DNA from: an uncultured Gammaproteobacteria bacterium
Lineage (GTDB): Bacteria > Patescibacteriota > Patescibacteriia > Magasanikbacterales > UBA922
Direction: 5' to 3'
Assembly: GCA_965231005.1 (NCBI GenBank)
Contig: OZ246405.1
Span: 431,877 to 474,222 of the forward strand
Length of the DNA stretch: 42,346 bases
Shown one piece after another: positions 3,109 to 24,053 of this stretch (position 1 is its first letter; each line of letters starts with the position of its first letter). The translations under genes and the position numbers were made by a program. A model generated the notes under the pieces. It was not told where the DNA came from. It did no database searches and saw only the letters and a program-made list of their open reading frames with translations.

Positions 3109-3147
3109 AATCTGTCACTAAAAAGTAATTTACTTTTCATTGAAAGT

Positions 3148-3180
3148 GCCGGCACCAGAGAGAGTATCTCCAGTGCCGGC
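3148..3180 (-). terminator. GC-stem hairpin at the end of the deoC-ALDH cassette
   Basis: GCCGGCAC...GTGCCGGC 8-bp stem plus a 4-bp inner stem (AGAG/CTCT), 33 nt downstream of the ALDH stop. No clean U-run. It marks the AT to GC composition switch. Confidence 0.4.
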
Positions 3181-3212
3181 GCTCATTACGAGTTGCAAGA
3201 CTCAGTCAACGG

Positions 3213-5618
3213 CTACACACCGTACGGCACCCAGATCGTCTTGACCTGAACAGCCTGGCGCAGGACGTAGTCCTTGTTCGCGCCCTGCGGTCCGATCCAG
3301 TCGAAGGGCTTGTGGTGCGTCCACGTCCGCTTCATGTTGTGCTGCGATGCCGAGTTGATCTTGGCACAGGTCACGTCGCCGGTCCATGCCCAGATGGCAT
3401 TGACATCTTCGTGCTCAGCCAGCAGGATCGCGATCTTGTCAGGATCCTTTGCGGTCAGCAGGTTGATGACACCACCGGGGATGTCCGAATCCTGGATCAC
3501 GTCGATGAGGGTCTTGGCGCAGAGCGGGTGCTTGCCCGCGATGGTCACGACCGTGTTGCCCATGGCGATTGCCGGGGCGATCGAGTTGATCAGGCCCAAG
3601 AGCGGCCAGTCGTCCGGAGCACGGATGCCCAGAACACCGATCGGCTCGTTCACCGAGTTGACCAGGAACCGACCTGCGTTGACCTGCTGAACAGTGCCGC
3701 CGTGCTTGTCAGCGTAAGCAGCCCAGCGATACAGCCGTTCGATCGAGGTATCGACTTCACCTTCAGCCTCCACGATGCTGTATCCGGTCTGGATCATGAT
3801 CTCTGCGATCAGACGATCTCGATGCTCTTGCAGTTGCTCGGCGATGTAGAACAGGAGCTGTCCGCGCTGGTGTCCAGACTTCTTCTTCCACGCTCCGATC
3901 GCCTTGCGCGCTGCTTCCTCAGCATTGCGCACATCCTTGCGGTTGGCATCGCAGAACGCACCGATGAAGTTGGTGGTGCCGTAGAGACTGCTGTGAATCG
4001 GGAAGCTAGTACCACGATCGGCACGAACACGCTTACCACCCACGAGCATCTTGTGCGTCTTGTGCAGTTCGGGCGGACTCCAGATCACCTCCTTACCGTT
4101 GCTCGTGCCGATGTTGCGTTTTGACGGCTCGTTGAAGTCGAACTTGAGCACGTCTTCCATGCCAGCACGACCACCTTCGCGACCAAAGCCGCTCATGAGG
4201 TTGCCACCGAACGGGGCAGACGCGTCGAACACGTTGGCCGAGTTGATCCAGAACACGCCACAGTTCACAGCACTTGCAATGTGCATGGCCGTGTCGATAT
4301 CCTGGGACCAGACCGAGCCGGCCAGACCGTACTTGGTGTTGTTCGCCAGAGCAATCGCATCACTCGGACGCCGGAAGGTCATGACCGTCAGCACAGGGCC
4401 GAAGATCTCTTCGCGGACGACCGTGTCAGTCGGTTGCACACCCAGCAGAAGCGTGGGAGGCAGGAAACAACCGCCCACAGGGAGCGAACATCCTTCCGGC
4501 TGCCAGACAGTCGCACCTTCTCTTGGAGCGAGGTCGATCATGGTCTTGATGGTTGCGTACTGCTCCGGAGAGTTGATCGCACCCATGTCCACGCCCTTGT
4601 CGAGCGAATCACCCACGACCATTTTCTCGATGCGAGCCTTCAGCAGTCGGGTGAACTCGTCGGCAACGCTCTCCTGCACCAGGATTCGCGTGCCAGCGCA
4701 GCAGACATGGCCTTGGTTGAGAAAGCCGCCATCCATGACGCCTTCGACAGCTGCATGCAGATCAGCTTTTTCGCAGACGATGAACGGACCCTTGCCGCCA
4801 AGCTCCATGGTGAGCTTCTTGTCGGTCGACGCGGTCGCCTTGCGGATGATCTGTCCCACACCAGTGGAACCAGTGAAGGCCACCTTCCACGGGGTCGGGT
4901 GGTTCACGATCGTGGCACCAGTCTCGCCAGCACCTGTCACGATATTGATCACGCCCGGGGGCAGACCAACTTCCTGAATGATCTTGACGAAGCGGAGCAC
5001 GCTCAGTGAGGTTGTCTCAGCAGGTTTGATGACCACGGTGTTGCCCGCAGCGAGCGCCGGGGCAATCTTCCACACGAACATGAGCAGTGGGAAGTTCCAC
5101 GGAATGATCTGCGCGATCACACCACCGGGCTTGCGACCAGGGAACTCACTTTCGAGCACCTGGGCCCAGCCAGCGTGGTGGTACAGGTGCCGAACGCACA
5201 GCGGGATGTCGATGTCGCGGCTTTCACGAATCGGCTTGCCACCGTCACGCGATTCCACGACCGCGAGTTCACGCGCGTACTGCTGCAGAGCTCGGGCCAG
5301 GGCGATGAGATACTTTGCACGCATGAAGCCATCCTCTTTGTCGCTCCACTTCGGGAGCGCCTTTGCAGCGGCTTTCATCGCAAGGTCCACGTCGTCGGCA
5401 TTGCCCATGGCAATCTCAGCCAGAACTTCGCCGGTCGCAGGGGCAATCGTCTTGAAGTACGTCCCACTGCTGGGCTTGACCCACTTGCCGTTGATGAAGT
5501 GACCGAACTTGCCGTTGTGCTTCTTCAGCCATGCTCGCATGTCAGCGTCGCTTTCCGGAGCAGGTCCGAATGTGAGAGGTTGCAGTTTGCCGTTTTTGAT
5601 TGGTTGTTGGTTTCCCAT
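3213..5618 (-). CDS. Aldehyde dehydrogenase fusion: a complete ALDH domain plus a C-terminal truncated ALDH-like (cofactor-binding-type) domain, 801 aa, high-GC
   Basis: The N-terminal ~500 aa carry the ALDH motifs FTGSTGVG, MELGGKGP and GHVCCAGTR (catalytic Glu/Cys context). The C-terminal ~300 aa look ALDH-like (AWTGDV in place of FTGS) but lack an ELGGK or catalytic Cys segment. GGAGGAcacaATG SD. Lies 12 nt downstream of deoC. Confidence 0.85.
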   Translation of the reverse strand: MGNQQPIKNGKLQPLTFGPAPESDADMRAWLKKHNGKFGHFINGKWVKPSSGTYFKTIAPATGEVLAEIAMGNADDVDLAMKAAAKALPKWSDKEDGFMRAKYLIALARALQQYARELAVVESRDGGKPIRESRDIDIPLCVRHLYHHAGWAQVLESEFPGRKPGGVIAQIIPWNFPLLMFVWKIAPALAAGNTVVIKPAETTSLSVLRFVKIIQEVGLPPGVINIVTGAGETGATIVNHPTPWKVAFTGSTGVGQIIRKATASTDKKLTMELGGKGPFIVCEKADLHAAVEGVMDGGFLNQGHVCCAGTRILVQESVADEFTRLLKARIEKMVVGDSLDKGVDMGAINSPEQYATIKTMIDLAPREGATVWQPEGCSLPVGGCFLPPTLLLGVQPTDTVVREEIFGPVLTVMTFRRPSDAIALANNTKYGLAGSVWSQDIDTAMHIASAVNCGVFWINSANVFDASAPFGGNLMSGFGREGGRAGMEDVLKFDFNEPSKRNIGTSNGKEVIWSPPELHKTHKMLVGGKRVRADRGTSFPIHSSLYGTTNFIGAFCDANRKDVRNAEEAARKAIGAWKKKSGHQRGQLLFYIAEQLQEHRDRLIAEIMIQTGYSIVEAEGEVDTSIERLYRWAAYADKHGGTVQQVNAGRFLVNSVNEPIGVLGIRAPDDWPLLGLINSIAPAIAMGNTVVTIAGKHPLCAKTLIDVIQDSDIPGGVINLLTAKDPDKIAILLAEHEDVNAIWAWTGDVTCAKINSASQHNMKRTWTHHKPFDWIGPQGANKDYVLRQAVQVKTIWVPYGV

Positions 5619-5630
5619 TGTGTCCTCCGT

Positions 5631-6710
5631 CTAGCCCAGGGCCAGATGATCTGTGTTGGCGTAGCGGCCAGTTGCGTGGTGAGAGAGCTGTCGTTCCAGG
5701 TCAGTGACCAGACCACTCGCGCCAATGCGGAAGAGGTCCGGCTCTGCCCAACGATCGTCGAGCACTTCGAGCATGAGGGCCAGGTACGCGTACGCGTCCT
5801 TTGCAGTGCGAATGCCGCCGGCCGGCTTGAAACCGACCTTGAGTTCGCCGTCCGTCATGTCGAGGAAGCGCTTGATCTCGCGGACCATAACCAGGGAAAT
5901 CGGCAGCGTCGCATTGACGCTCGCAGTACCAGTGCTGGTCTTGATGGTGTCAGCGCCTGCCATGATGGCAATGGCCGAAACCTTCGCAGCCAGTTCGTAG
6001 TTCTGCAGGTCACCGGTCTCGATGATGGTCTTGAGCTTGGCACCTTCGCATGCTTCGCGCATGGCAGTGAACTCGTCGTACAGCGCCTTCCACTGACCGG
6101 TGATGGCCAGTTCGCGACGCGCAACCACGTCCACCTCAGTCGCACCCGCCTCGATCGACATTGCGATCTCACGGACCCGGGTCTCGAGCGGGGCTTGGCC
6201 GTGCGGGAATCCGGTCGACACAACTGCGATGGGCAGCCTGCCATTCAAGAACTCGACGGCTGCAGCCAGTTGGTGGTGGTACACGCAGATGGCGCCGGTG
6301 GTCAGCTTGCCGATGAGGTCTTCTCGGCCAATGCCAGCCAGGATGTCCGGACGAACCGGGTTCAGAGCCTTGTGGCAAAGACGCATCACACGACCAACCG
6401 TGTCATCGCCCTTCAGCGTGGTCAAATCAGTGCAGGCAATTGCGTGCAGAAGTGCATTGATCTGAGCAGCCTTCTTGAAAGGGCGCTTCTTCGGCAGGGT
6501 CGCAGTCCGTCGCTCGGTCGCGCTTCGGTTGGTCTGGATGCTGTTGACCAGCGCCAGGTCCAGCCCGATCGGCTTGTTCAGCTTCTTCTCGTCGTTCTTG
6601 TTCGGGGTTGCTTCAGCCTGACCGTTTCCGTCAGACGGTTTGGGCTTTCTTGAACGGCCGCCTTTGGCCGCTGTCCCGCTGTTGGCGGGAGGAGCTTGCG
6701 TGTCTTGCAT
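5631..6710 (-). CDS. deoC: Deoxyribose-phosphate aldolase (long form) with a low-complexity N-terminal extension, high-GC
   Basis: Motifs IKTSTGT and GFKPAGGIRT (the Schiff-base Lys contexts of the DERA family) and an overall TIM-barrel DERA-like sequence. The ~90-aa N-terminus is rich in K, P, G and N. GGAAGGAGAG-N9-ATG. Confidence 0.85.
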   Translation of the reverse strand: MQDTQAPPANSGTAAKGGRSRKPKPSDGNGQAEATPNKNDEKKLNKPIGLDLALVNSIQTNRSATERRTATLPKKRPFKKAAQINALLHAIACTDLTTLKGDDTVGRVMRLCHKALNPVRPDILAGIGREDLIGKLTTGAICVYHHQLAAAVEFLNGRLPIAVVSTGFPHGQAPLETRVREIAMSIEAGATEVDVVARRELAITGQWKALYDEFTAMREACEGAKLKTIIETGDLQNYELAAKVSAIAIMAGADTIKTSTGTASVNATLPISLVMVREIKRFLDMTDGELKVGFKPAGGIRTAKDAYAYLALMLEVLDDRWAEPDLFRIGASGLVTDLERQLSHHATGRYANTDHLALG

Positions 6711-6811: not shown

Positions 6812-6840
6812 ACAGTATCAATTTTTTTGCTAAAAGTCAA
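6812..6840 (-). promoter_or_regulatory. Sigma70-type promoter of the deoC-ALDH cassette
   Basis: On the minus strand: TTGACT (6840-6835), a 17-nt spacer, TACTGT (6817-6812). It directly abuts repeat copy B. Confidence 0.55.
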
Positions 6841-6966: not shown

Positions 6967-7437
6967 CTAATAATGGTACTTTTTTCCATTCAAAATCGTA
7001 CCAGCTCTGTATAATTGTTCTAAAAATACAACACGAACCATTTGATGGGGAAGAGTCATTTGAGAAAGGGACAGTTGGTGATTTGCCTTTTCTAATATTG
7101 ATTCATGAAGACCAAGTGGGCCACCAATCAAAAAGACTATTTTTTGACCACGCTCAGAATGTTCAGCAAGAAAAGATGAAAATTCAACTGATGTCATTTC
7201 TTTTCCTCGCTCATGAAGTGCAATAACCATATCAGCTTTTTTCAAATATGGAAGAAGTTTTTTTGCTTCTTGTTTTTTAATATCTTCAACATTGTCTGAA
7301 TCACGGAATGATTTTTCTGGAATTTCAACAACATCAATTTTTGCGTAAGACGTTAAACGCTTTAGATATTCTTTTGCACTTTCTTTCCAATATCCATCTT
7401 TTAGTTTTCCGAGTGCAACAATTTGAATGTTAAACAT
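6967..7437 (-). CDS. rlmH: 23S rRNA (pseudouridine1915-N3)-methyltransferase RlmH (SPOUT)
   Basis: 156 aa with the typical RlmH layout (MFNIQIVALGKLK..., C-terminal GKKYHY). Host-type AT-rich composition. No SD. Confidence 0.88.
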   Translation of the reverse strand: MFNIQIVALGKLKDGYWKESAKEYLKRLTSYAKIDVVEIPEKSFRDSDNVEDIKKQEAKKLLPYLKKADMVIALHERGKEMTSVEFSSFLAEHSERGQKIVFLIGGPLGLHESILEKANHQLSLSQMTLPHQMVRVVFLEQLYRAGTILNGKKYHY

Positions 7438-8211: not shown

Positions 8212-8240
8212 TTGACACACACATATCTTTATGTTATTTT
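8212..8240 (+). promoter_or_regulatory. Sigma70-type promoter of the 238-aa orphan cassette
   Basis: TTGACA (8212-8217), 17-nt spacer, TATTTT (8235-8240), 5 nt downstream of repeat E. Confidence 0.55.
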
Positions 8241-8296: not shown

Positions 8297-9013
8297 ATGC
8301 ACTACGAAACTATTGAGGGAACAACCCACATTTACGTCGACGAGGGCGAAGATAGGGCGGCGGTTCTTCGAGCTCTTGTCTTGGCGTCATTCAACATGGC
8401 CAGGCCGTTTGGCCTGAGTCGTGTAGGATTTGCTACAGATTTCAGACTGACCGATGATCACGTTGGTCTATTCATTGAAGATACTGGTGATCCCAATTCT
8501 GGTTCACGCGTCGTTCGGATGGAGTACATCGACGGACGTCAGTGCGCAACCAGGATTTTCTCGCAAGGTGAGGGGCACTTCACACTTCAGAACACGGTTT
8601 TCGAGCCTGATCGTGGTGAGCCTGATCCCATGCTCGACTACGCGAAAAAGCTCCTTGCTGGCGTAGAAGTTTCGGATTTTCCGCTGACGACCCACATGTT
8701 CAAAGGACGGAGTCTTGAGCTCCGACTGCGAGAGTGGGGTATTGAGCGACAAGACGGCGAAGACGACTGGGCACTGCGTGGACGCGCTTTTCTGGCAATC
8801 TTCAAGCAGCGACCGGCGTTTGCATTCGAGCTCGTCATGGGCATGTGCCTGTCTGAGATGGATGAGATGGATCAGATCTTGTTCACGATCCTGATGACTG
8901 ACACTGCACATACGCCTGCTGGTCTCCAGCGCTTTGTCCGACAGTATGGGGAAGATCCACAGCCGGGTTGCGAATTCCGTGCTCAGGCAGCGCGTAGGCG
9001 AGCGCAGCAATAG
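8297..9013 (+). CDS. Hypothetical protein, 238 aa, high-GC orphan
   Basis: Long ORF with high-GC codon usage and a GGGGGTGG SD just before the ATG. No family recognised. Confidence 0.65.
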   Translation: MHYETIEGTTHIYVDEGEDRAAVLRALVLASFNMARPFGLSRVGFATDFRLTDDHVGLFIEDTGDPNSGSRVVRMEYIDGRQCATRIFSQGEGHFTLQNTVFEPDRGEPDPMLDYAKKLLAGVEVSDFPLTTHMFKGRSLELRLREWGIERQDGEDDWALRGRAFLAIFKQRPAFAFELVMGMCLSEMDEMDQILFTILMTDTAHTPAGLQRFVRQYGEDPQPGCEFRAQAARRRAQQ

Positions 9014-9033: not shown

Positions 9034-9079
9034 GCGCTGTTGTAGGAAATTTTCCAGGAGGGAAGTACTACAACAGCGC
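9034..9079 (+). terminator. 12-bp perfect stem hairpin after the 238-aa ORF
   Basis: GCGCTGTTGTAG (9034-9045) pairs with CTACAACAGCGC (9068-9079) around a 22-nt loop. No adjacent U-run, so terminator function is uncertain. Confidence 0.35.
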
Positions 9080-9136
9080 GCAACAAAAGCAGCTTTTAAA
9101 AGAAGGCTGTTTTTGTTTATATTCTATTCGTTATCA

Positions 9137-9165
9137 TTGACAAGACACCTTATCTTCTGTATGGT
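9137..9165 (+). promoter_or_regulatory. Sigma70-type promoter of the MFS cassette
   Basis: TTGACA (9137-9142), 17-nt spacer, TATGGT (9160-9165), inside a short AT-rich stretch between two GC-rich ORFs. Confidence 0.55.
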
Positions 9166-9219: not shown

Positions 9220-10737
9220 ATGCTCAAGACAGCTTTGTGGACGTTTGTGTCCATTACGCTTGCTGCAGCTCCGGCGTTTGCAGCGGGTGGTGGGGACAAA
9301 CCCTGGTACACCGGCATTACGCCGATTCTCATTCTCTTGGCCACGATTGGTTTGGTCATCCTTCGCCTGCCTCAGGTCAAAGAGGAATTCGAAGGGCAGC
9401 TGGCCCATTTGCGCAACAGTGCGTTTCGACACCGGCGTGCCGTGAACTGGATTCTGCTGGGTCTGACCTACGCGTTCCTGTACTGGGGGCGCTACAACCT
9501 GAACCCGGCCATCTCTGCCATCGGCGGCAAGAGCATGGTTGCTGACTTCAACTGGGTCTTCGGTGCTGGCACAGCCGTATACGGCGCGTCGTTTCTCATC
9601 AATGGTCCGCTCACGGACAGACTCGGTGGTCGGTTTTCCATTCTCACAGGTGCCTTCGGCTCGATGATCATGAACGCACTCATGGGTGCTGCCTGTTGGG
9701 CAAGCTTGAACGGTCATATCGATTCAAAAGAACTGTTCTGGCTGCTCGTGTTTCTCTACCCGGCGAACATGTACTTCCAGTCCTTCGGCGCAGTCGCAAT
9801 CGTCAAGTGCAACTCAGCATGGTTCCATGTTCGAGAGCGTGGTGTGTTCGGAGCAATCTTCGGCATCATGATCTCCATGGGCATCTACTTTGCCTTTGAC
9901 TGGAGCTACTACATCGTTGGCAAGAGCGGACTGAACATGCCTGCGCACTGGGCGTTCATTGCTCCGGCTGCAGCACTCGGGATCATGTTTGTTTTCGACG
10001 TTTTTGTTGTGCGCAACCGTCCGAGCGAAGCAGGTCATGCTGACATCAACACTGGCGATGCAAGCTCTGGTGACACTGGTCCTGCAGACGGCGCGGTCGC
10101 TGTGTTCAAGCGCATGTTCACCAACCCTGTCATCATGACCATTGCCTGCATCGAGTTCTGCAGCGGCTTCCTGCGTCAGGCGATCATGCAGCAGTACCGG
10201 TTCTTCGCAAAGTTGACCGGGATTGCTGATTCGTTCGTCTACCAGAACTGGGGCCTGCTCCTATGCTGCGCTGGCATTCTCGGTGGTGTGTTCGCTGGCA
10301 CGATCTCTGATCACATGTTCAACTCCAGGCGCGGTCCTGTTGCTGGTGTGCTCTACATCGGCATGGTACTCGGAAGTGCTGGCATGTGTTTCTTGCTCGG
10401 TTCACCTGCGCTCGGCTGGCTCGTGATCTTCATGTCGTTCTGCGTCATTGGCGTGTATGGCATGCTCTCTGGTACAGCAAGTATGGATTTCGGCGGAAGC
10501 AAGAACGTGGGTATTGCTGTTGGTATTATCGACGGCTTTGTCTACGCTGGCACTGCGCTCCAGTCGATTCTGTACGCAACAACTCTGCCCAAGGCTGGCA
10601 CGGCAGCAGCAGCTGACCCGTCGAGCTGGTGGTTCTGGCCTGTTGCGATGATCCCGTTCGCAGTCATCGGCTTGCTCCTGGCCTACAAGATCCGCAACGC
10701 AAAACCCAAACCAAAACCCAAACTGGCAGCTGTCTAG
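9220..10737 (+). CDS. MFS transporter, organophosphate:Pi antiporter (GlpT/UhpC)-like, high-GC
   Basis: About 12 predicted hydrophobic spans. The N-terminal region YWGRYNLNPA...GASFLINGPLTDRLGGRF resembles the GlpT/UhpC signature region. I chose the ATG at 9220 (AGGAGGGcaacATG) rather than the track start 9187. Confidence 0.7.
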   Translation: MLKTALWTFVSITLAAAPAFAAGGGDKPWYTGITPILILLATIGLVILRLPQVKEEFEGQLAHLRNSAFRHRRAVNWILLGLTYAFLYWGRYNLNPAISAIGGKSMVADFNWVFGAGTAVYGASFLINGPLTDRLGGRFSILTGAFGSMIMNALMGAACWASLNGHIDSKELFWLLVFLYPANMYFQSFGAVAIVKCNSAWFHVRERGVFGAIFGIMISMGIYFAFDWSYYIVGKSGLNMPAHWAFIAPAAALGIMFVFDVFVVRNRPSEAGHADINTGDASSGDTGPADGAVAVFKRMFTNPVIMTIACIEFCSGFLRQAIMQQYRFFAKLTGIADSFVYQNWGLLLCCAGILGGVFAGTISDHMFNSRRGPVAGVLYIGMVLGSAGMCFLLGSPALGWLVIFMSFCVIGVYGMLSGTASMDFGGSKNVGIAVGIIDGFVYAGTALQSILYATTLPKAGTAAAADPSSWWFWPVAMIPFAVIGLLLAYKIRNAKPKPKPKLAAV

Positions 10738-10820
10738 CGTCACCCTCTCTTCGCAAGCAGATGCCCTCCGACGTTTCAGTACGGAGTCCGTACCTTCGAC
10801 TTCGTCGAAGCGTCGGACGA

Positions 10821-10875
10821 GCCCCTGTGTTGTCGTACTCCCCAAAAGAGTGCGATGACCAGGGGTTTCTTTATT
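10821..10875 (+). terminator. Hairpin plus T-rich tail ending the MFS cassette
   Basis: GCCCCTG (10821-10827) pairs with CAGGGGT (10860-10866), followed by TTCTTTATTT. Smaller hairpins at 10778-10792 and 10793-10810 precede it. Confidence 0.45.
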
Positions 10876-10996: not shown

Positions 10997-11025
10997 TTGA
11001 CTTTACCTAGAATTCATGCTACGTT
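10997..11025 (+). promoter_or_regulatory. Sigma70-type promoter of the PpnP-like cassette
   Basis: TTGACT (10997-11002), 17-nt spacer, TACGTT (11020-11025). The TTG start used by the ORF track is this -35 element. Confidence 0.55.
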
Positions 11026-11068: not shown

Positions 11069-11383
11069 ATGCCACATTCACAGATTCAACACACGCCATA
11101 CAGAGGCGGCGCAGTACAGTCTCTCAAGTTCGATCTCGAGTCCACTGGCGAGACCTGGTCTGTCGGCGTGATGACGCCTGGCGAGTGGAGGTTCGATGCA
11201 GAGGTCGACGAAGAACTTCGCATCGTCGTCGGTTCGCTCGTCGATGGGCGCTTCAACACGACGCACGCGTGGAACGACAACCCGTTCCTTCGTCTCATTC
11301 CTGCCGGGACTTCGGTCACGTTCGTGTGCGAAGACAACGTGGCCTACACCTGCAAGTACGGCACCGAGCCCAGTCAGGCCTGA
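11069..11383 (+). CDS. ppnP: Pyrimidine/purine nucleoside phosphorylase PpnP-like (DUF1255, cupin), high-GC
   Basis: Aligns by eye to remembered E. coli PpnP/YaiE: Y.G.V.S..F...STG..SVGVM..GE..F.......E....V.GSL and C-terminal AYTCKY versus SYLCRY. About 104 aa. AGGGGGtagcATG. Confidence 0.7.
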   Translation: MPHSQIQHTPYRGGAVQSLKFDLESTGETWSVGVMTPGEWRFDAEVDEELRIVVGSLVDGRFNTTHAWNDNPFLRLIPAGTSVTFVCEDNVAYTCKYGTEPSQA

Positions 11384-11413
11384 GAACAAGTGGAAGTACA
11401 ACTTCAAGGAGCA

Positions 11414-11470
11414 AGCCCCTGAGTTACCATCCTTTCGAAAGGAACAAGGTAACCAGGGGCTTTCGTTTTT
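11414..11470 (+). terminator. Long hairpin terminator of the PpnP-like cassette
   Basis: AGCCCCTG (11414-11421) pairs with CAGGGGCT (11454-11461), with inner stems GTTACC/GGTAAC and TCCTTT/AAAGGA, followed by TTCGTTTTT. Confidence 0.65.
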
Positions 11471-12417: not shown

Positions 12418-12446
12418 TTTACAATTCTTTTGAAAAATGATATAGA
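12418..12446 (+). promoter_or_regulatory. Sigma70-type promoter of the 217-aa orphan cassette
   Basis: TTTACA (12418-12423), 17-nt spacer, TATAGA (12441-12446). Confidence 0.45.
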
Positions 12447-12477: not shown

Positions 12478-13131
12478 ATGTCAACTCAGCAGCCTGTCCA
12501 CGTCACAGCAATCGTATTTCTTCAGGATGTGCTTGGCATCTCTGATCTTGATGTCATTGGCAAATGGCTTGGACGCAAGTCCATTGCTCGGGAAACCGTC
12601 CTTGTAGTTTATCCTGACATTACGTTGCAAGTAAAGGATACTGGCCAGTGGATTCAGTCGACTCCATTCAGAAGTACAGCTGCACCGTACGCGCGCATCG
12701 GTGGTGGTAGCGGATCCAAAAGACAAGCCAAATGTTGGGCTCTTGCTCAAGAACACAAAATTCCCGAACAGAGCAGCACAGCTACTGTTGTATCAAACCT
12801 TTGTTTTTCTCCGGGTGTTCGAGTTGATACTCTCGAGGAGTTGCCCGACGGCAGAGTGCTATTTCAGGGCGAGGACGACAGGTGGCAAGTAGCCTACGAG
12901 TGGGGAATGCATGAACCAGGACAAGGCTGGAGTGGTTGTGAGTGCATCTTCCGTTCGTTTTCGATTTACATACTCATGAGGAATGGTTTTGGTCGGAGAA
13001 CCAATGAGGAACACGGCGCTTGGGATTCCAAGGACGAGGCAATCGAAGCGACAGATGGCGTGCTTCAACTGAAGGAACAGAAACAGTTTCACGAACGAGG
13101 TCGGCCGCGCGTTCCAGATCTCAAGTTCTAA
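12478..13131 (+). CDS. Hypothetical protein, 217 aa, high-GC orphan
   Basis: The ATG at 12478 is preceded by AAGGAGGcatc. GC-rich codons. No family recognised. The track start 12430 lies in the AT-rich promoter. Confidence 0.6.
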   Translation: MSTQQPVHVTAIVFLQDVLGISDLDVIGKWLGRKSIARETVLVVYPDITLQVKDTGQWIQSTPFRSTAAPYARIGGGSGSKRQAKCWALAQEHKIPEQSSTATVVSNLCFSPGVRVDTLEELPDGRVLFQGEDDRWQVAYEWGMHEPGQGWSGCECIFRSFSIYILMRNGFGRRTNEEHGAWDSKDEAIEATDGVLQLKEQKQFHERGRPRVPDLKF

Positions 13132-13220
13132 CAGCCGATCGATTTCTGTACAAAAAGGGGACAAACAATTAGCGACTTGCCGTCTGCGTCTTGACCAGCA
13201 CGGCAAGCGCAGACATTCTT

Positions 13221-13241
13221 CACCATAAAAGGTGTTTTTTT
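13221..13241. terminator. Weak hairpin plus T7 run between convergent genes
   Basis: CACC-ATAAAA-GGTG followed by TTTTTTT. Only a 4-bp stem. It sits between the orphan ORF (+) and the 13261..13869 gene (-). Confidence 0.35.
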
Positions 13242-17219: not shown

Positions 17220-17248
17220 TTGACTTTCCTGTATTTCCATGATAACAA
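17220..17248 (+). promoter_or_regulatory. Candidate promoter of the 85-aa orphan cassette (divergent from the purine permease)
   Basis: TTGACT (17220-17225), 17-nt spacer, TAACAA, which is a weak -10. Alternative: TTGAAA (17192-17197), 16-nt spacer, TATAGA (17214-17219). Confidence 0.4.
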
Positions 17249-17289: not shown

Positions 17290-17547
17290 ATGGCGCCAGG
17301 ATTTTCAAAATTCAAAATCGGTGACAAGGTGCGTCCAGAACCAGGCCAGACTTGGGCGTTTGGAAAGGACTTTCCGAAACGCACATTCTGGGACTGGCTG
17401 TTTCGCAGACCAAAGCCGGTCTACACGGTTGTGTCCAGCAGGTACCAAGAACCACGGTGCCAGATTGGCGGGACCTACACGACCATCGAAGGACATGACG
17501 GCGAACAGTACGAACTTCCAGACTGCTTCATCGTGAAGGCGGCGTAG
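17290..17547 (+). CDS. Hypothetical protein, 85 aa, high-GC orphan
   Basis: AGGAGGGccacATG. GC-rich ORF bounded by AT-rich DNA and a good terminator. No family recognised. Confidence 0.55.
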   Translation: MAPGFSKFKIGDKVRPEPGQTWAFGKDFPKRTFWDWLFRRPKPVYTVVSSRYQEPRCQIGGTYTTIEGHDGEQYELPDCFIVKAA

Positions 17548-17592: not shown

Positions 17593-17626
17593 AAGGGCTC
17601 AGCTTGCTGTGCCCTTCCGTTTTTTT
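17593..17626 (+). terminator. Rho-independent terminator of the 85-aa cassette
   Basis: AAGGGC (17593-17598) pairs with GCCCTT (17611-17616), followed by CCGTTTTTTT. Confidence 0.6.
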
Positions 17627-17644
17627 AAGCGCATAATGCGTTTT

Positions 17645-18922: not shown

Positions 18923-19303
18923 AATGCCTTAAACAAATTATCACACGCACAGTTTTGATGAAGAATCATCAACACAATGTGGTTGATAATACCGATACGA
19001 AAGAAACAGTCTGATCATTACAATTCAACGCAAAGCAACAAACCAAAAAATAAAGTGAAACAAAGAAAACAATTATGTGTTTTCGTAGTGCGCAATTCAA
19101 GAGCGTATGGTGGATGCCTAGACACGTTTTGACGATGAAGGACGTAGTAACCTGCGATAAGCCTCGGTAAGGTGGTAAACAACCTTTGACCCGGGGATTT
19201 CCGAATGGGGGAACCCAGCTCGAGTAATGTCGAGTTACCTCAAATTTATTTGAGGGGAAGACCTAGCGAAGTGAAACATCTCAGTAGCTAGAGAAAAAGA
19301 AAA

Positions 19304-19390
19304 CAAAAAAAGCTTCTTTTATAACCATTCTTCTGGTTACTGTTTCGAGCCCTCGGGCAAGAGACAGCAACCATTAGATTGGTTCAGAAG
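19304..19390 (+). other. Insertion of about 80 nt in 23S domain I
   Basis: Between GAGAAAAAGAAA and GATTCCGTAAGTAGTGGCGAGCGAA, E. coli has about 9 nt and this sequence has about 90 nt. It contains the hairpin GGTTACTGTTTCGAGCCCTCGGGCAAGAGACAGCAACC. Confidence 0.6.
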
Positions 19391-19393
19391 TGT

Positions 19394-19424
<31 letters not shown>

Positions 19425-20958
19425 ACAGCCCAAACCTATATTGTGTTGAGAAGAGTACGGATTGTCTTCGGATGATTTTAGGCTCGACTCTTAAAGGACA
19501 GGCCGTTGCAATATAGGTGTTGTAGGATGCAACATTGACTACCTGTGATGTCAAATGGTGTATATATCTTGTATAATCGAATATTTCTGGAACGTTAGAC
19601 CATAGAGGGTGATAGTCCCGTAGATAAAATATGTTATATACAGTATCGTTGTATTCCTGAGTAGGGCGGGACACGTGAAATCCCGTCTGAATTTGTCGCG
19701 ACTATGCGATAAGGCTAAATACGAAACGTGATCGATAGTGAACCAGTACCATGAGGGAAAGGTGAAAAGTAGCCCGGAGAGGGCGGTGAAATAGTCCCTG
19801 AAACCATACGTTTACAAAGAGCAGGAGCCCGTAAGGGCGACTGTGTTCCTATTGAAGAATGAGCCTGCGAGTGTGCTATGTGTCGCAGCTTAACCCCGTT
19901 AAATCGGGGGAAGGCATAGGGAAACCGAGTCTTAACCGGCGAATTAGTGGCACATACACGACCCGAAACCGAGCGAGCAATCCATGGCCAGGTTGAAGGG
20001 ACGGTAAGACGTCCTGGAGGACCGAACCCACGCACCGTGCAACATGCGGGGATGAGCTGTGGATAGCGGAGAAATTCTTATCGAGCTCGGTAATAGCTGG
20101 TTCTCCTCGAAACAGTTTTAGGACTGGCTGTATGTGTTCCCTCTGGGGGTAGAGCACTGGATGAGGGTTGGGCGGTTCGCCGTACCACCTTCAATCAAAC
20201 TCCGAATACCAGAGATTTATAGCATGCAAGTTAGACTATGGGGGCTAAGCTTCATAGTCGAAAGGGAAACAGCCCAGACCGCAAATTAAGGTCCCTAAAT
20301 CAATACTAAGTGTTAAAGGTGGTGTTGATTCTTATACAACCAGGAAGTTGGCTTAGAAGCAGCCATCTTTTAAAGATAGCGTAACAGCTCACTGGTCAAG
20401 AGTCTTCGCGCCGAAAATGTACCGGGGCTAAGTATTGTACCGAAATTGCGGCTTTGTATATTTCTTCGGAAGTGTACAAGGGGTAGAGGAGTATTCTTAT
20501 TGCGTCGAAGTCGGACCCGCGAGGGCCGGTGGAGCGATGAGAAGCAAGAATGCAGGCACAAGTAGCAAAAATGAAGGTGAAAGTCCTTCACGCCGAAAAC
20601 CCAAGGTTTCCAGGGCAACGTGAATCGTCCCTGGGTTAGTCGATCCTAAGGCCAGGCCGAAAGGCGTAACCGATGGATGAGCAGGTTAATATTCCTGCAC
20701 TTGGTATTGTGTTGCATGAATGTGTGCATTTCAAAGATCTGAGCGTTGTATGGCTACACGTATCGCAAGATAAAGACCGCGGCTTCGGCCAAGGTCAATT
20801 CAGGTTGGAGAAGTGCCTAGAAAAGCATTTGTGTGTAAACAATATCAAATCGTACCGCAAACCGACACAGGTGGGTAGGTCGAGAAGACCAAGGCGCACG
20901 AGAGAAACATGGTTCAGGAACTCGGCAAAACAGCGGCCGTAACTTCGGGATAAGGCCT

Positions 20959-21075
20959 GCCCGCTTTCGCTTTTCGTTTCCACTCAAAGCTTCAGCGAGG
21001 CAAAGCCCTTTAAAGTAAAATTTTTAGGGGCTGTGCCTCGCTATAGCACGAGCGGAGCGAAGTGCGAAAGCGGGC
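20959..21075 (+). other. Enlarged variable helix in 23S domain IV-proximal region
   Basis: A perfect 12-bp closing stem GCCCGCTTTCGC / GCGAAAGCGGGC encloses a second stem AGCGAGGCA..TGCCTCGCT. It is roughly 50 nt longer than the corresponding E. coli segment as I remember it. Confidence 0.5.
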
Positions 21076-21810
21076 TCAACAAAAGATGTCACGCGACTGT
21101 TTACCAAAAACACAGCTCTCTGCGAACTCGTAAGAGGACGTATAGGGGGCGATGCCTGGCCAGTGTCAGAACGTTAAAGCAAGGGGTTATTTCATTTCGG
21201 TGAAAGAAGCTCTGAACTGAAGCGCTGATGAACGCCGGCGGTAACTATAACCGTCCTAAGGTAGCGAAATTCCTTGTCGGGTGAGTTCCGACCCGCACGA
21301 ATGGCACAACGGTGTGACAACTGTCTTAACCATGTACTCGGCGAAAATGCATTTGTCGTGAAGATGCGACATACACGCAGCAAGACGAAAAGACCCCGTG
21401 AAGCTTTACTACAGTTTGATATTGATAAATTGCTCTACATGTTCAGCATAGGTGGGAGCCTTCGGGCACCAGTGAGATACCACCCTTGTATTGTAGTTTG
21501 TCTAACTGCTCCGACTGAATCGTCAGAGCGGGACAGTATCTGATGGGTAGTTTAACTGGGGCGGTTGCCTCCCAAACAGTAACGGAGGCGTTTACAAAGG
21601 TTGGCTTGGTCCGGATGGAAATCGGACTGGACGTGCAAACGCATAAGCCAGCTTTACTGCAAGGGCTACCACCCGAGCAGTTACGAAAGTAGAAGTTAGT
21701 GATCCGACCGTACGATATAGGACGGCGGAAGCTCAACGGATAAAAGTTACTCCGGGGATAACAGGCTGATCGCGCCCAAGCGTCCACAGCGACGGCGCGG
21801 TTTGGCACCT

Positions 21811-22171
21811 TAACATATCGGGGTGCACAAACAGTGATGTTTTTCCCAATACTTTTCGTCAAGTATAAAATACAAACAAAATACAGATAGGTAAAAAAGA
21901 GACACAAAATCGGCTATAACGGTGAACCCGTAAGTGGAAGAAACGCCACACGGCAATACCGTGGGAAGTCGTCCTAATTTAATTGGGATTGACCCCGTAA
22001 CGACTGACTCGAAAGAGGAGACTTGGTAAGAAATTACTGCCAGGTAACACGCCGACTCTTGTTAAAAAAAACTGAGATCATGCGGTTCACGTCCCGACTA
22101 GTCGGGATCCGCTACCATCCAGAACAAGATGAAGATATAGTCTGCGCCACAAGAAACTGTGGAATCAAGTA
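21811..22171 (+). mobile_element. ORF-less group I intron in 23S rRNA (E. coli position about 2500)
   Basis: Removing it restores GGCACCT|CGATGTCGGCTCATC. P1: exon GCACCU (21805-21810) pairs with GGGUGC (21821-21826), with a U.G wobble at the splice site. P10: AUAUCG (21815-21820) pairs with 3' exon CGAUGU (22172-22177). R-like GTTCAC..CGACTAG (22085-22101). S-like AAGATATAGTC (22132-22142). P9-like hairpin at 22147-22162. Confidence 0.75.
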
Positions 22172-22283
<112 letters not shown>

Positions 22284-22668
22284 CTATCTGCTGTGTGCGT
22301 TGAATAGTGAGGAAACTCGCCCCTAGTACGAGAGGACCGGGGTGGACAAACCTCTGGTGTACCAGTTGTCCTGCCAAGGGCATTGCTGGGTAGCTAAGTT
22401 CGGTACGGATAAGCGCTGAAAGCATCTAAGTGCGAAGCCGTTTCCAAGATTACTATTCATTTGAGATACCTTCGAGACGAGGAGGTTGATAGGCACTAGG
22501 TGTACGCCCCAAAAGGTGTAGCCGAGGTGTACTAATATATCGAGTGTACTACGAAAACACAGAGTTGTTTTTGACTCACATTATTTGCTTGTCCTGAGCG
22601 ATCTGGCCTAAAGGCCAGAGAGTCGAAGGATTGTTTACAATATTATTTTACTCGAACTGAGTATAGAA

Positions 22669-22776: not shown

Positions 22777-22788
22777 TCCTGTACTCAG

Positions 22789-22815: not shown

Positions 22816-22864
22816 GTACTCATTTTTTATTTTATGATAGTATATGATTACATAATCAATATCT

Positions 22865-23335: not shown

Positions 23336-23339
23336 TATT

Positions 23340-23546
23340 ATGAGTGAAAAAGAAAAACATCACATGTCAAAAAAAGAATTAGATGAACAAAGAAGACCTA
23401 TGATTCACGATCTTCCGGATCTTCAAATTGTTCCGCATACACCAAGCACAGAACAAGAGCCTGATGTTAGTCCTGCGCAAGAGCAAGATGTTATTGATGA
23501 AGCACTTAGAAAGAGTATGGTAGATACAGAAGTTGCAGAAGGATAA
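23340..23546 (+). CDS. Small acidic hypothetical protein (68 aa)
   Basis: The ATG at 23340 lies just after the guaD stop. AT-rich host composition. No family recognised. Confidence 0.4.
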   Translation: MSEKEKHHMSKKELDEQRRPMIHDLPDLQIVPHTPSTEQEPDVSPAQEQDVIDEALRKSMVDTEVAEG

Positions 23547-23568
23547 CATTTCTAATTTATACGTGAAA

Positions 23569-23595
23569 ACACCCTTGACAAAGGGTGTTTTTTTT
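23569..23595 (+). terminator. Rho-independent terminator of the guaD / small ORF unit
   Basis: ACACCCTT-GACA-AAGGGTGT followed by TTTTTTT. Confidence 0.7.
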
Positions 23596-23603
23596 GATAG
23601 ATT
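23575..23603 (+). promoter_or_regulatory. Promoter of the 118-aa orphan cassette, overlapping the preceding terminator
   Basis: TTGACA (23575-23580, spanning the stem end and the loop of the terminator), 17-nt spacer, TAGATT (23598-23603). Confidence 0.45.
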
Positions 23604-23634
23604 TGTCGCAACAAACCAACCAAGGGGGTGAGAA

Positions 23635-23991
23635 ATGCCAAGCGCAAAAGCGAAGAACAAGAAGGATTGTTCGCTCCAAGATCTCCAGGCTGTGGATCTG
23701 ATCTGTTGGGACCCTGACACCAAGGGGCTCAAGATGAGTGGACCGGCCGGTCTGACGATCTTCTGGGGCGATGACGACAAGCGAGTCATGAGCACCTCGT
23801 ACGACGCAATGGTCGTGGTGCAGATCATGCAGGTCGTCACGGGGCAACAGTTCGTTCGTGTTCCGAACCAGCCGGTGTTCACGCCTGGTCATGTCAAGAC
23901 CGATGTCCAGTGGGAGCGCGAAGACCGACGCAAGCAGAAGGGCGACGAGCCCGAGCCGGAGCCCGAGCAGGCCGTTGGTGCGCCTGCGTAG
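23635..23991 (+). CDS. Hypothetical protein, 118 aa, high-GC orphan
   Basis: GGGGGTGagaaATG. GC-rich ORF with an acidic E/P-rich C-terminal tail. No family recognised. Confidence 0.55.
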   Translation: MPSAKAKNKKDCSLQDLQAVDLICWDPDTKGLKMSGPAGLTIFWGDDDKRVMSTSYDAMVVVQIMQVVTGQQFVRVPNQPVFTPGHVKTDVQWEREDRRKQKGDEPEPEPEQAVGAPA

Positions 23992-24020
23992 TTCACAACC
24001 AAACACAAGCAAGGGAGGCA

Positions 24021-24053
24021 AAGCCCCCGGATTCCAGTGGAAAACGGGGGCTT
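24021..24053 (+). terminator. GC-stem hairpin ending the 118-aa cassette
   Basis: AAGCCCCCG (24021-24029) pairs with CGGGGGCTT (24045-24053). The T-run lies about 12 nt further on (24065-24070). Confidence 0.5.

Follow-up and report, generated by a model that had tools for sequence, protein, structure and literature searches.

The DNA analysed here, referred to as the window, is a stretch of 42,346 nt from a 1,232,850-bp contig that is small, AT-rich and Patescibacteria/CPR-like. Two-state Viterbi segmentation across this 42-kb window located six GC-rich blocks (51-60% GC) in a background of 31-37% GC, the sole further GC-rich block being the 23S rRNA. The six blocks contain seven transcription units with eight genes (Table 1), two units of block 8288-10865 being split by an AT dip at about 9013-9187. 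These islets measure 0.35-3.6 kb. The first-pass annotation had already divided the GC-rich DNA into seven segments, and the segmentation matches them, except that the GC-rich part begins not at the promoter but at the ribosome-binding site, 9-52 nt upstream of the ATG. In their AT content, the promoters resemble host DNA, as do most of the leaders.

Table 1. Features of the islets and their surroundings. GC blocks are those of the two-state Viterbi segmentation; SD, Shine-Dalgarno site.
Feature	Position	Strand	Details
GC block	3146-6762		59.7% GC
GC block	8288-10865		54.5% GC
GC block	11060-11460		57.6% GC
GC block	12463-13214		50.9% GC
GC block	17266-17619		55.6% GC
GC block	23616-24051		59.4% GC
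Islet 1, predicted promoter	6812..6840	-	TTGACT-14 nt-TGA-TACTGT; 101 nt from -10 to ATG
Islet 1, gene 1	5631..6710	-	359-aa DeoC-type aldolase; Pfam DeoC and NCBIfam TIGR00126 above cut-off; GC3 0.73; SD AGGAAGGAG; TAG stop
Islet 1, gene 2	3213..5618	-	801-aa aldehyde dehydrogenase (ALDH); Pfam Aldedh 8e-183; GC3 0.73; SD GGAGG (-9.5 kcal/mol); TAG stop
Islet 1, terminator	3148..3180	-	GC-rich 14-bp-stem hairpin past ALDH stop codon, inside GC block 3146-6762; z = -5.45
Islet 2, predicted promoter	8212..8240	+	TTGACA-14 nt-TGT-TATTTT
Islet 2, orf238	8297..9013	+	238-aa protein; GC3 0.55; SD AAGGGGGT; TAG stop
Islet 2, terminators	9034..9117	+	GC-rich hairpin 9034-9079, then AT-rich hairpin with T-run 9082-9117; z = -7.33
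Islet 3, predicted promoter	9137..9165	+	TTGACA-17-TATGGT; sole promoter of seven without TGn
Islet 3, gene	9220..10737	+	505-aa MFS transporter; Pfam MFS_1 2.8e-20; GC3 0.67; SD CAGGAGGG; TAG stop
Islet 3, terminator	10767..10868	+	two GC-rich hairpins, then TTTCTTTATTT; z = -7.57
Islet 4, predicted promoter	10997..11025	+	TTGACT-14 nt-TGC-TACGTT
Islet 4, gene	11069..11383	+	104-aa PpnP-like (cupin) protein; Pfam Ppnp 4.8e-10; GC3 0.72; SD AAGGGGGT; TGA stop
Islet 4, terminator	11407..11470	+	hairpin and T-run; z = -4.45
Islet 5, predicted promoter	12418..12446	+	TTTACA-14 nt-TGA-TATAGA
Islet 5, orf217	12478..13131	+	217-aa protein; GC3 0.47; SD GAAGGAGG; TAA stop
Islet 5, hairpins	13172..13234	+	GC-rich 13172-13210; small with T-run 13221-13234; region z = -1.4
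Islet 6, predicted promoter	17220..17248	+	TTGACT-14 nt-TGA-TAACAA
Islet 6, orf85	17290..17547	+	85-aa protein; GC3 0.63; SD CAGGAGGG; TAG stop
Islet 6, hairpins	17593..17643	+	GC-rich with T-run 17593-17616; host-type 17627-17643
Islet 7, predicted promoter	23575..23603	+	TTGACA-14 nt-TGA-TAGATT
Islet 7, orf118	23635..23991	+	118-aa protein; GC3 0.75; SD AAGGGGGT; TAG stop
Islet 7, terminator	24016..24057	+	hairpin; z = -3.78
rlmH	6967..7437	-	host anchor gene
23S rRNA	19084..22555	+	host; other anchor of the putative insertion zone
Repeat copies bordering islets 1-4	3027-3088, 6838-6970, 8080-8219, 10868-10997
Repeat copies beside ordinary host genes	7432-7563, 27694-27805, 32803-32865		rlmH/GNAT, h94/FBPase and TrmB/h214, respectively

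GC1/2/3, codon use and dinucleotide signature set all eight island genes apart from 32 host genes, the separation that the first-pass annotation had suggested looking for. GC3 is 0.47-0.75 in the islets versus 0.17-0.34 in the host genes, orf217 being the most host-like. The codon and dinucleotide signatures of the islets are similar to one another, and their GC3 differs even among the adjacent islets 2, 3 and 4. Six of the eight genes end in TAG, which is not expected of a typical high-GC donor. A further contrast concerns translation initiation. A strong Shine-Dalgarno site precedes every island gene (8/8) and no host gene (0/32), with duplex energies of -8.8 to -12.0 kcal/mol against a host mean of -0.7, without overlap (Mann-Whitney p = 1.6e-5). 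The G-rich sites had been described before; it had been overlooked that the host lacks them and that the ribosome-binding sites of the islets are thus not of host type. Loss of the anti-SD motif has been reported in part of the Parcubacteria (PMC9297842).

The proposed build of AT-rich promoter, leader, SD, GC-rich ORF and hairpin finds support at the sequence level. As previously described, six units have TTGAC(A/T) as their -35 box and the seventh has TTTACA, each with a 17-bp spacer to the -10-like hexamer. These hexamers are weak (3-4 of 6 positions), and six of the seven promoters carry TGn at -15/-14, making an extended -10. Since TGn stands at exactly the right place so often (binomial P ~8e-7), these promoters are very likely real, and transcription of the islets is predicted to start from a -35 plus extended -10 promoter in AT-rich DNA; the ATG follows the -10 hexamer after a leader of 31-101 nt. 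Two promoters of the host itself, those of the rRNA and TrmB, share the TTGACA -35 at a spacing of 16-17 bp, the TrmB promoter also with TGn, and the -35 boxes of islets 1 and 4 lie within ends of a host intergenic repeat (R2 and R5, pair I3). The term "recipient-style" is partly apt for the promoters, but not for the ribosome-binding sites. The GC-stem hairpin noted earlier does close all seven units, with T-runs after most of them; its fold z-score is -3.8 to -7.6 in five, -2.2 for orf85 and -1.4 for orf217, the weakest of the seven.

The DeoC and ALDH of islet 1 would degrade deoxyribose-5-phosphate. The MFS protein weakly resembles UhpC/PgtP organophosphate antiporters (NCBIfam TIGR00881, 1.5e-17, far below its cut-off) and the PpnP-like protein matches PRK10579 well below its cut-off; both genes adjoin host purine permease, phosphoribosyltransferase, deaminase and NUDIX genes. 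Scavenging would be the likely benefit of the islets. Among 5.8 billion proteins, including those from assemblies of the same two sequencing runs, the best ALDH homologue reaches 54% identity, and none in any sampled genome exceeds it. DeoC is 55% identical to the DeoC adjoining the ALDH homologue in contig L002, and the pair is kept as a unit elsewhere; the contig of this nearest pair is uniformly 65.7% GC and carries TonB-receptor genes. The L002 homologues stop with TGA at the aligned position where the island genes carry TAG. Other ALDH matches, at about 50%, are spread across many phyla, among them Acidobacteria, Gemmatimonadota and Proteobacteria. As the nearest pair is only 54-55% identical and lies in a 66% GC contig, no donor is identified, and it is composition by itself that speaks for a "recent" import. 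For the single high-GC donor proposed in the first-pass annotation, with the organism's host as the obvious candidate, there speaks the likeness among the island signatures; against it stand the remoteness of the ALDH homologues and the lack of a word-level homologue of orf238 outside its own strain.

The four genes first described as orphans are real, and two of them belong to small conserved families. About 60 remote homologues of orf238 were found at 29-41% identity, with no word-level homologue outside its own strain. Its AlphaFold2 model is confident (pLDDT 93.9, pTM 0.90) and has no fold match in the PDB. The gene orf85 belongs to a small conserved family, with seven homologues at 33-53% identity and 11 invariant columns. 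A single partial remote homologue (P0297) was found for orf217 and a single weak one (P0318) for orf118.

The host is assigned to the Patescibacteria indirectly, from homologue labels, genome size, the lack of SD sites and a split rRNA operon (23S-5S without 16S). Its permease homologues, at 74-86% identity, come from MAGs labelled Saccharibacteria, Gracilibacteria, Peribacteria and Patescibacteria, with one labelled Alphaproteobacteria; one RlmH match is labelled Magasanikbacteria. From RlmH to the 5' end of the 23S gene there are 0.4-1.0 kb in contigs L011, L013 and L015, all distant relatives (RlmH identity 61-63%), versus 11.6 kb here, and synteny with them holds beyond the rRNA operon. 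The 11.6-kb interval is accessory DNA that includes islets 2-6, and the zone holding these islets has therefore apparently been inserted. By this comparison of gene order, the RlmH-23S zone is a putative insertion hot spot. The empty sites that had been proposed for comparison are thus seen, at this RlmH identity, for the whole zone and not per islet, and islets 1 and 7 are covered only indirectly. The islets are flanked by rlmH, the rRNA operon and glycolytic genes. The earlier statement that integrase, transposase and tRNA are missing agrees with the searches: ARAGORN finds no tRNA or tmRNA gene in the window, and its scanned ORFs contain no integrase, transposase or other recombinase domain. 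No PHROG or Pfam phage family matches the island or flanking ORFs, and no islet-specific flanking direct repeats were found.

An assembly or binning chimera, joining reads of GC-rich and AT-rich organisms, would explain the composition contrast and nothing further. This concern had been raised in the first-pass annotation. Eight junctions are reproduced at 99.96-100% identity by three independent assemblies from two sequencing runs: L001 (MEGAHIT k127, run ERR2281800) is 100% identical to window 5056-9466, L009 (run ERR2281801) equals 4620-9242 with 2 mismatches, and the Logan assembly L010 equals 22712-24976 at 100% identity, which confirms the junctions of islet 7. All boundaries are, moreover, intergenic with intact expression signals, and fourteen such coincidences are not credible. 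The chance of a chimera is thus negligible. It is also very unlikely that a single GC-rich block was transferred once and later split by AT-rich gene insertions and rearrangements. Five islets do lie within 10 kb, and ALDH, DeoC, orf238, orf118, orf217 and MFS resemble one another in codon choice and in dinucleotide signature, with delta* x1000 values of 56-128 within this group of six genes versus 82-252 to host genes. Yet GC3 varies even between neighbouring islets, every unit carries a promoter and a terminator of its own, islet 7 lies beyond the rRNA operon, islet 1 is on the opposite strand, and the core gene RlmH, ancestrally adjacent to the 23S, stands between islets 1 and 2. The earlier view that these ORF-scale units among host genes are not one transferred block is upheld. 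An integron-like capture, with the palindromic, 9-bp-periodic intergenic repeat as recombination site, is even harder to credit. Repeat copies border islets 1-4 and two -35 boxes lie in repeat ends, but the repeat also flanks ordinary host genes, is absent at islets 5-7, and stands at gene 3' ends in 6/7 copies, which fits a terminator or REP-like role. With no integrase or other recombinase in the window, and with cassettes that, unlike those of integrons, carry promoters and lie in mixed orientation, the unrecognised capture process once suggested is not sustained.

There remains the idea that complete modules (promoter, leader, SD, ORF and terminator) move among Patescibacteria on an unrecognised vehicle, so that the direct donor would be another small-genome bacterium or a phage or plasmid of it, GC-rich ORF and AT-rich promoter being transferred together. 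We consider this unlikely, though it explains several observations. Orphan homologues in other Shine-Dalgarno-less, CPR-like contigs have the same cassette build. Homologue P0250 in L049 (35.7% GC) has TTGACT-13 nt-TGT-TATATT, then about 50 nt of leader and AAAGGAGG, with a GC3 of 0.43 versus 0.22-0.36 in its neighbours; those in L018/L019, a 45% GC contig, have TTGACA-17-TAAAGT and GGGAGG, with GC3 of 0.77/0.63; and the homologue in L017 is the sole SD-led gene among eight. The core promoter of orf238 aligns with that of P0250 at 28/35 positions, scoring 32, where 2000 shuffles gave 18.6 +/- 2.7 and at most 31. A TGA-avoiding source would fit the TAG-rich, TGA-poor stop usage, and in a published survey other Patescibacteria are the source of most transfers into Patescibacteria (PMC12455944). 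On the other hand, the L049 likeness falls mostly on the -35 and TGnTAT motifs, which, in AT-rich DNA, may have converged; the orf85 cassette shows no promoter similarity to its L018 homologue (p = 0.77); and the seven upstream regions have nothing in common besides functional motifs. No relatives turned up in IMG/VR, GenBank phages or PLSDB plasmids, the window has no mobility gene, and ordinary GC-rich bacteria are where the relatives of ALDH and DeoC lie. It is thus doubtful that there is, independent of phages, a common pool of complete moron-like expression modules circulating among CPR-type bacteria whose own genes lack SD sites. If there were, each module to move as a unit would comprise a -35 plus extended -10, about 30-130 nt of leader, then a strong SD, the ORF and a hairpin; SD-led initiation, kept after partial amelioration, would mark a second, "imported" translation regime; and the TAG-rich, TGA-poor stop usage would be the signature of the pool.

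We think it probable that the islets are foreign genes, acquired horizontally in a tidy moron-like form by repeated, separate uptake at a gene-flux hot spot flanking the rRNA operon. Seven or more foreign pieces, a two-gene operon plus six single genes, would have entered the DNA around the 23S-5S operon from GC-richer bacteria using Shine-Dalgarno sites. The foreign part of each piece comprises ribosome-binding site, ORF and GC-rich hairpin, and is unameliorated at all three codon positions. The pieces may have been taken up and then joined to intergenic DNA by illegitimate recombination; a recombinase, tRNA or direct-repeat signature is absent. Those retained would have brought a strong promoter along, come to lie behind one or soon evolved one, and their own SD-led start would have been preserved; retention of only such expressed pieces would account for the uniform moron-like look. 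As the host repeat provides two of the -35 boxes with its end, promoter supply may be at least partly local. No support was found for a new biological mechanism or capture machinery.

Classical genomic islands are tRNA-flanked, integrase-bearing and 10-200 kb long. The islets share their deviant GC and codon usage, accessory functions and, it appears, absence from relatives, but are far smaller, scattered, and lack tRNA, integrase and flanking direct repeats. Integron cassettes are promoterless, lie in the same orientation beside an IntI tyrosine recombinase with attI and Pc, and each end in an attC palindrome. Islets 2-4 are likewise ORF-sized units in a row, some with an imperfect palindrome between them; however, that palindrome is a general host intergenic repeat, there is no intI in the 42-kb window and no attC-like site per cassette, and the islets have their own promoters and terminators, with islet 1 on the minus strand.

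The first-pass annotation knew of no described mechanism for ORF-scale foreign segments of this kind, but individual transfers in Patescibacteria and phage morons have both been described. According to the Patescibacteria survey (PMC12455944), these bacteria carry hundreds of islands and individually transferred genes, with single genes and small islands making up as much as 13% of a genome. The setting described there is alike in its streamlined CPR-type recipients, donors often not recovered, and gains of metabolic and transporter functions. It differs in that mostly transfers between Patescibacteria are reported, whereas ALDH and DeoC have their relatives in GC-rich, non-CPR-like bacteria; the word promoter does not appear in the survey, and the passages considered contain neither the SD/no-SD contrast nor the rRNA-flanking hot spot seen here. 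Phage morons (the Hendrix/Juhala concept, summarised in PMC4378225) as a rule consist of one coding region, equipped with a promoter and a terminator of its own and inserted between two genes that are neighbours in relatives; their composition is unlike that of the flanking genes. Their mechanism of acquisition is unknown and no recombinase target is left (PMC4378225). The islets resemble them in their predicted promoters, hairpin terminators and deviant composition. Morons are, however, defined inside phage or prophage genomes, whereas the islets are flanked by chromosomal housekeeping genes and the rRNA operon and also differ from their host in translation-initiation mode. Since no phage family occurs in the island or flanking ORFs, the islets are not morons by definition; in their working, they are moron-like.

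Besides the 23S rRNA, a 300-nt sliding profile with two-state Viterbi segmentation called six sharp-edged GC-rich blocks in the window, against a background of 31-37% GC. The seven GC-rich segments described in the first-pass annotation were recovered as these six blocks, made up of seven units (islets 1-7): a DeoC-ALDH operon on the minus strand (islet 1) and the single genes orf238, MFS, PpnP-like, orf217, orf85 and orf118 (islets 2-7). Their positions matched, but their limits had to be redrawn, as the GC-rich DNA starts not at the promoter but with the ribosome-binding site (9-52 nt ahead of the ATG), and runs through the terminator hairpin. Promoters and most of each leader have the AT composition of the host. 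GC3 is 0.47-0.75 in the eight island genes versus 0.17-0.34 in the host genes (the AT-rich residents of the window), and GC1 and GC2 are also higher in the islands. Islands favour CTG/CTC, GGC/GGT, CGT/CGC and CCG, while the host favours A-ending codons. Dinucleotide distances (delta* x1000) are 56-128 among ALDH, DeoC, orf238, orf118, orf217 and MFS, versus 82-252 against host genes.

Coordinates of features in the window (strand where recorded)
Feature	Position	Detail
GC-rich block	3146-6762	59.7% GC
GC-rich block	8288-10865	54.5% GC; AT dip at ~9013-9187 parts two units
GC-rich block	11060-11460	57.6% GC
GC-rich block	12463-13214	50.9% GC
GC-rich block	17266-17619	55.6% GC
GC-rich block	23616-24051	59.4% GC
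Island gene	3213-5618	TAG stop
Island gene	5631-6710	TAG stop
Island gene (orf238)	8297-9013	TAG stop
Island gene	9220-10737	TAG stop
Island gene	17290-17547	TAG stop
Island gene	23635-23991	TAG stop
-35 of islet 1	6840	minus strand
-35 of islet 4	10997	
Intergenic repeat	3027-3088	
Intergenic repeat	6838-6970	
Intergenic repeat	7432-7563	
Intergenic repeat	8080-8219	
Intergenic repeat	10868-10997	
Intergenic repeat	27694-27805	
Intergenic repeat	32803-32865	
Methyltransferase-domain gene	13872-14744	
Purine permease	15847-17289	minus strand; xanthine/uracil family
DpnI-like gene	18180-18626	Dam-replacing family
TTATCCACA 9-mer	18677-18685	perfect
Host rRNA promoter	18707	TTGACA-17-TATAAT
23S rRNA	19084-22555	3472 nt
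FBPase, class II-type aldolase, GAPDH	27895-31326	
FBA (host gene)	28872	
GAPDH (host gene)	30307	
TTATCCACA 9-mer	31887-31895	perfect
Host TrmB promoter	31914	TTGACA-16 nt (TGA at end)-TATCCT
GlmS (host start)	36605	MCG...
Contig L001	5056-9466	100% identity
Contig L009	4620-9242	two mismatches
Contig L010	22712-24976	100% identity
Mismatch to L009	4831	in ALDH
Mismatch to L009	8850	in orf238

The sharpest discriminator between island and host genes, missed by the first-pass annotation, is the strength of the Shine-Dalgarno (SD) site. All eight island genes have a strong SD (duplex energy with ACCUCCUUA, -8.8 to -12.0 kcal/mol). The host genes (n=32) average -0.7 kcal/mol, their strongest value (-6.4) falls at a doubtful TTG start, and the two distributions do not overlap (Mann-Whitney p = 1.6e-5). 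The SD is absent at well-defined host starts such as that of GlmS; GAPDH and FBA are other resident examples. Since the anti-SD motif is absent from about half of Parcubacteria 16S genes in a published survey (PMC9297842), genomes without SD sites have precedent in this radiation. Stop codons also differ: TAG ends 6/8 island genes, while TAA ends 27/32 host genes and TGA at most 1/32. Behind the TAG excess may lie a donor pool that avoids TGA, or the recipient may select against TGA.

Assembly artefact is ruled out by three separately assembled contigs, retrieved by exact-protein look-ups: L001 (MEGAHIT k127, run ERR2281800), L009 (run ERR2281801) and L010 (Logan assembly). Jointly they cross the junctions of islets 1, 2, 3 (5' side) and 7, and the contig carrying the window is itself 1,232,850 bp long. 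The two differences from L009 over 4.6 kb are both in foreign genes, with none in the 1.5 kb of intervening host DNA, a number too small to interpret. Structured RNA as the cause of the GC-rich orphans (orf238, orf217, orf85 and orf118) is also rejected, as Rfam matches in the window are limited to one 23S and one 5S rRNA with no 16S, the orphans show GC1 > GC2 periodicity, and conserved protein families plus a confident fold mark them as coding. The window contains no tRNA, as had been noted at first reading. The 23S gene, linked to the 5S gene and not to a 16S gene, is longer than the 2925-nt model and carries AT-rich expansion segments near its 5' end (insertions of 84, ~63 and ~21 nt at model positions ~230, 283 and 313).

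All seven promoter sites proposed at first reading have TTGAC(A/T), or TTTACA in one, exactly 17 bp from a -10-like hexamer. These -10 hexamers are weak (3-4/6 matches), and in six of the seven promoters they are preceded by an extended -10 (TGn at -15/-14; binomial probability ~8e-7 at a TG frequency of 0.075), which, judging by the motifs, would make up for their weakness. The clearest host promoters, those of rRNA and TrmB, are of the same class; in the remaining host transcription units, -10 hexamers are better than -35 hexamers. The islet promoters are thus compatible with the recipient, as first proposed, but a "recipient-style cassette" is wrong, as leader and SD together follow a foreign style. 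Generic promoter-like matches are not enriched, numbering 54 in window 1-20000 (36 +/- 7 expected) and 61 in 22500-42346 (66 +/- 9 expected). A leaderless-mRNA signature of host genes is not claimed for this genome, as -10-like hexamers do not cluster at any position. Perfect TTATCCACA 9-mers (DnaA-box-like) occur just twice in the window, each ~20 nt ahead of the -35 of a host promoter (rRNA and TrmB), in regions not homologous apart from those features. The skew minimum near 18.9 kb was rejected as a replication origin, the DnaA-box count being at chance (12 observed, 12.1 expected). At the other end, a GC-rich hairpin closes all seven units, with z = -3.8 to -7.6 in five and weaker values for orf85 (-2.2) and orf217 (-1.4); in several units another hairpin, AT-rich and with a T-run, comes next.

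A single mobile promoter shared by the islets is ruled out, since alignment of the seven upstream regions revealed no homology past the functional motifs. A host-specific intergenic repeat could be suspected of acting as a capture site. It has seven copies in the window (~130 bp if complete), built of two inverted arms with 4-5 tandem 9-bp units each (GCCTTTAnn / nnTAAAGGC), and six of the seven lie at gene 3' ends. The -35 boxes of islets 1 and 4 lie within homologous repeat arm ends (...GGCCTTTT(T/G)T(T)TAT(G)TTGACTTT; 88% identity over 52 nt), and consequently at least two promoters are partly made from local DNA. The same arm end holds the ATG of rlmH, GNAT1 and the 214-aa gene. However, the repeat is also found between ordinary host genes and is missing at islets 5-7, which speaks against a capture-site role. 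Candidate identities for it are a REP/MITE-like element, a terminator or insulator, and a protein-binding array. A phage or plasmid vehicle found no support: PHROG gave no matches for the orphans or the flanking unknown ORFs, IMG/VR gave no relatives, and GenBank phages and PLSDB plasmids contained no relatives of orf238 or MFS.

The surroundings of the rRNA operon point to where the islets arrive. RlmH homologues reach at best 61-63% identity, and the relatives used for synteny are three distant loci in that range (L011, L013, L015). In all three, the 23S 5' end lies near rlmH in divergent orientation, at 420 bp, 387 bp and about 1.0 kb, respectively. The same spacing in the window is 11,647 bp, filled by islets 2-6 and about ten AT-rich accessory genes (GNAT, EamA, methyltransferase, purine permease, CYTH and DpnI-like among them). 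Beyond 23S-5S, the L011 order matches that of the window (ExoIII - small ORF - ... - phosphoribosyltransferase - TrmB - HAD-like - nucleotidyltransferase), with extra genes, islet 7 among them, inserted in the window. The accessory interval and the extra genes past 23S-5S thus mark the rRNA operon flanks as a gene-flux hot spot, and the GC-rich islets are arrivals there, still unameliorated. GC3 is unequal among neighbouring islets (0.55, 0.67, 0.72 and 0.47 in islets 2-5), indicating differing arrival times, differing donors, or both. Several separate acquisitions rather than one block, as first suggested, are supported.

Genes 74-86% identical to the purine permease occur in six MAGs, five of them labelled as Patescibacteria lineages (Saccharibacteria, Gracilibacteria, two Peribacteria, Patescibacteria) and the sixth as Alphaproteobacteria, with no neighbours in common. 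The permease appears to be a widely shared accessory gene belonging to the same horizontal traffic as the islets; with zero synteny at six loci, it was abandoned as a guide to empty sites in sister genomes. The 985-aa flanking protein had no relative in JGI metagenome contigs. The methyltransferase-domain and DpnI-like genes inside the insertion zone may be restriction-modification remnants. At the place of the class I aldolase of L011 (Pfam Glycolytic; L011 3250-4239), the window carries FBPase, a class II-type aldolase and GAPDH, a replacement by genes of host composition within a shared syntenic frame.

Donors were sought through islet 1. The 801-aa ALDH has at least 8000 homologues, of which the two best are only 54% and 52% identical; the named matches, all at ~50% identity, come from Acidobacteria, Gemmatimonadota, several Proteobacteria, SAR324 and Aureispira. 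A DeoC gene precedes ALDH in the two best matches, as in the window. The best match, L002, is uniformly GC-rich (65.7%) and encodes TonB-dependent receptors. Its DeoC is 55% identical to ours, and both proteins align to the last residue of their C-termini, with TAG in the window and TGA in L002. The conserved order and the GC-rich L002 indicate that the two genes entered together, as an operon, from a GC-rich lineage not yet sampled. The protein database, including assemblies of the organism's own runs, contained no near-identical GC-rich copy, leaving a co-occurring donor or host unsupported; the donor may be rare or unassembled.

DeoC matches TIGR00126 above cut-off, and with ALDH it would turn deoxyribose-5-phosphate into glyceraldehyde-3-phosphate and acetate. 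The MFS protein is weakly related to UhpC/PgtP organophosphate antiporters and the 104-aa protein is weakly PpnP-like, both far below curated cut-offs. Host genes around these two include a purine permease, a purine phosphoribosyltransferase, a CDA-type deaminase and a NUDIX hydrolase. Scavenging of nucleosides and sugar phosphates is a plausible common theme, which the predicted gains would fit: breakdown of deoxyribose-phosphate, a transporter of organophosphate type and a protein resembling nucleoside phosphorylase.

No function for the orphans emerged from profile searches of Pfam, NCBIfam and PDB sequences, and orf238 had no word-level homologue. An exhaustive phmmer search of 1.84 billion representatives with the four orphans concatenated gave about 60 full-length homologues of orf238 (29-41% identity), seven of orf85 (33-53%), one partial match for orf217 and one weak match for orf118. 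Both family alignments (orf238 and orf85) have invariant columns, and the orphans are genuine genes. A scan for further loci of the family, made with a reduced alignment, yielded nothing beyond spurious matches of 16 residues. From the orf238 alignment, AlphaFold2 gave a confident model (pLDDT 93.9, pTM 0.90), for which Foldseek found no PDB match (best E = 0.22, TM below 0.2) and one unnamed 116-aa viral protein in BFVD (E = 3.7e-3). The 238-aa protein defines a ~60-member family, and its predicted fold may be new.

The contexts of three homologues were used to judge whether the same build recurs elsewhere. In L049 (35.7% GC; locus 1646-2640), the orf238 homologue P0250 is the sole SD-led gene (AAAGGAGG, -11.6 kcal/mol versus +0.4 to -3.1 for its neighbours), with GC3 of 0.43 versus 0.22-0.36; upstream lie TTGACT-13 nt-TGT-TATATT and a ~50-nt leader. 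In L018/L019 (~45% GC, two assemblies; L018 is GCA_018824525.1, 7644-8400), an orf85 homologue, together with a partner ORF, makes up an islet of 55-60% GC that has TTGACA-17-TAAAGT, GGGAGG and a hairpin plus T-run; GC3 is 0.77/0.63. In L017 (50% GC), the orf238 homologue is the only SD-bearing gene (-8.9 kcal/mol). The L018 and L049 islets repeat the window's build, running from a TTGAC(A/T) promoter and leader through a strong SD and an ORF of raised GC3 to a terminator. The orf238 core promoters of the window and L049 align at 28/35 positions (score 32 versus 18.6 +/- 2.7 for shuffles, maximum 31 in 2000), the proteins being ~33-36% identical. It could be that an orf238-type promoter travels with its gene; the likeness could also be convergence on a -35 plus TGnTAT in AT-rich DNA. 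The orf85 unit showed no promoter similarity to its homologue (p = 0.77). These three-locus observations are not proof, and hint that complete expression modules may recur in other SD-less genomes.

The window offers an exceptionally clear view, backed by independent assemblies, of function gain in a streamlined, probably host-dependent bacterium: gene by gene, at a hot spot beside its rRNA operon, with survival probably limited to pieces that form whole expression units. The complete contrast between SD-led foreign and SD-less resident genes provides a simple, scalable marker of recent imports in such genomes, and raises a testable question: is the anti-SD still in use by the recipient ribosome? 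New here are the clean split of genes into SD and no-SD classes, the uniformity of the extended -10 promoters, the hot spot flanking the rRNA operon and the hint of recurring modules. The finding is solid and its importance moderate, because known mechanisms suffice and no new one is needed.

The first-pass annotation knew of no described process giving such segments, but existing concepts already cover them. Within the window, the islets differ from classical genomic islands in having no tRNA, integrase or flanking repeats, and from integron cassettes in having no IntI or attC, their own promoters and mixed orientation. Patescibacteria are already documented to carry individually transferred genes and small islands (PMC12455944), and the islets are instances of these. 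Nearest in concept is the phage moron, in most cases one coding region that brings its own promoter and terminator, has deviant composition, lies between genes adjacent in relatives and was acquired by an unexplained mechanism (PMC4378225). The islets share the deviant composition, the unexplained acquisition and, by sequence prediction, the own promoter and terminator, and islets 2-6 lie in a zone between two genes that are close neighbours in three distant relatives. They do not reside in a phage, the defining feature: they work like morons without being members by definition.
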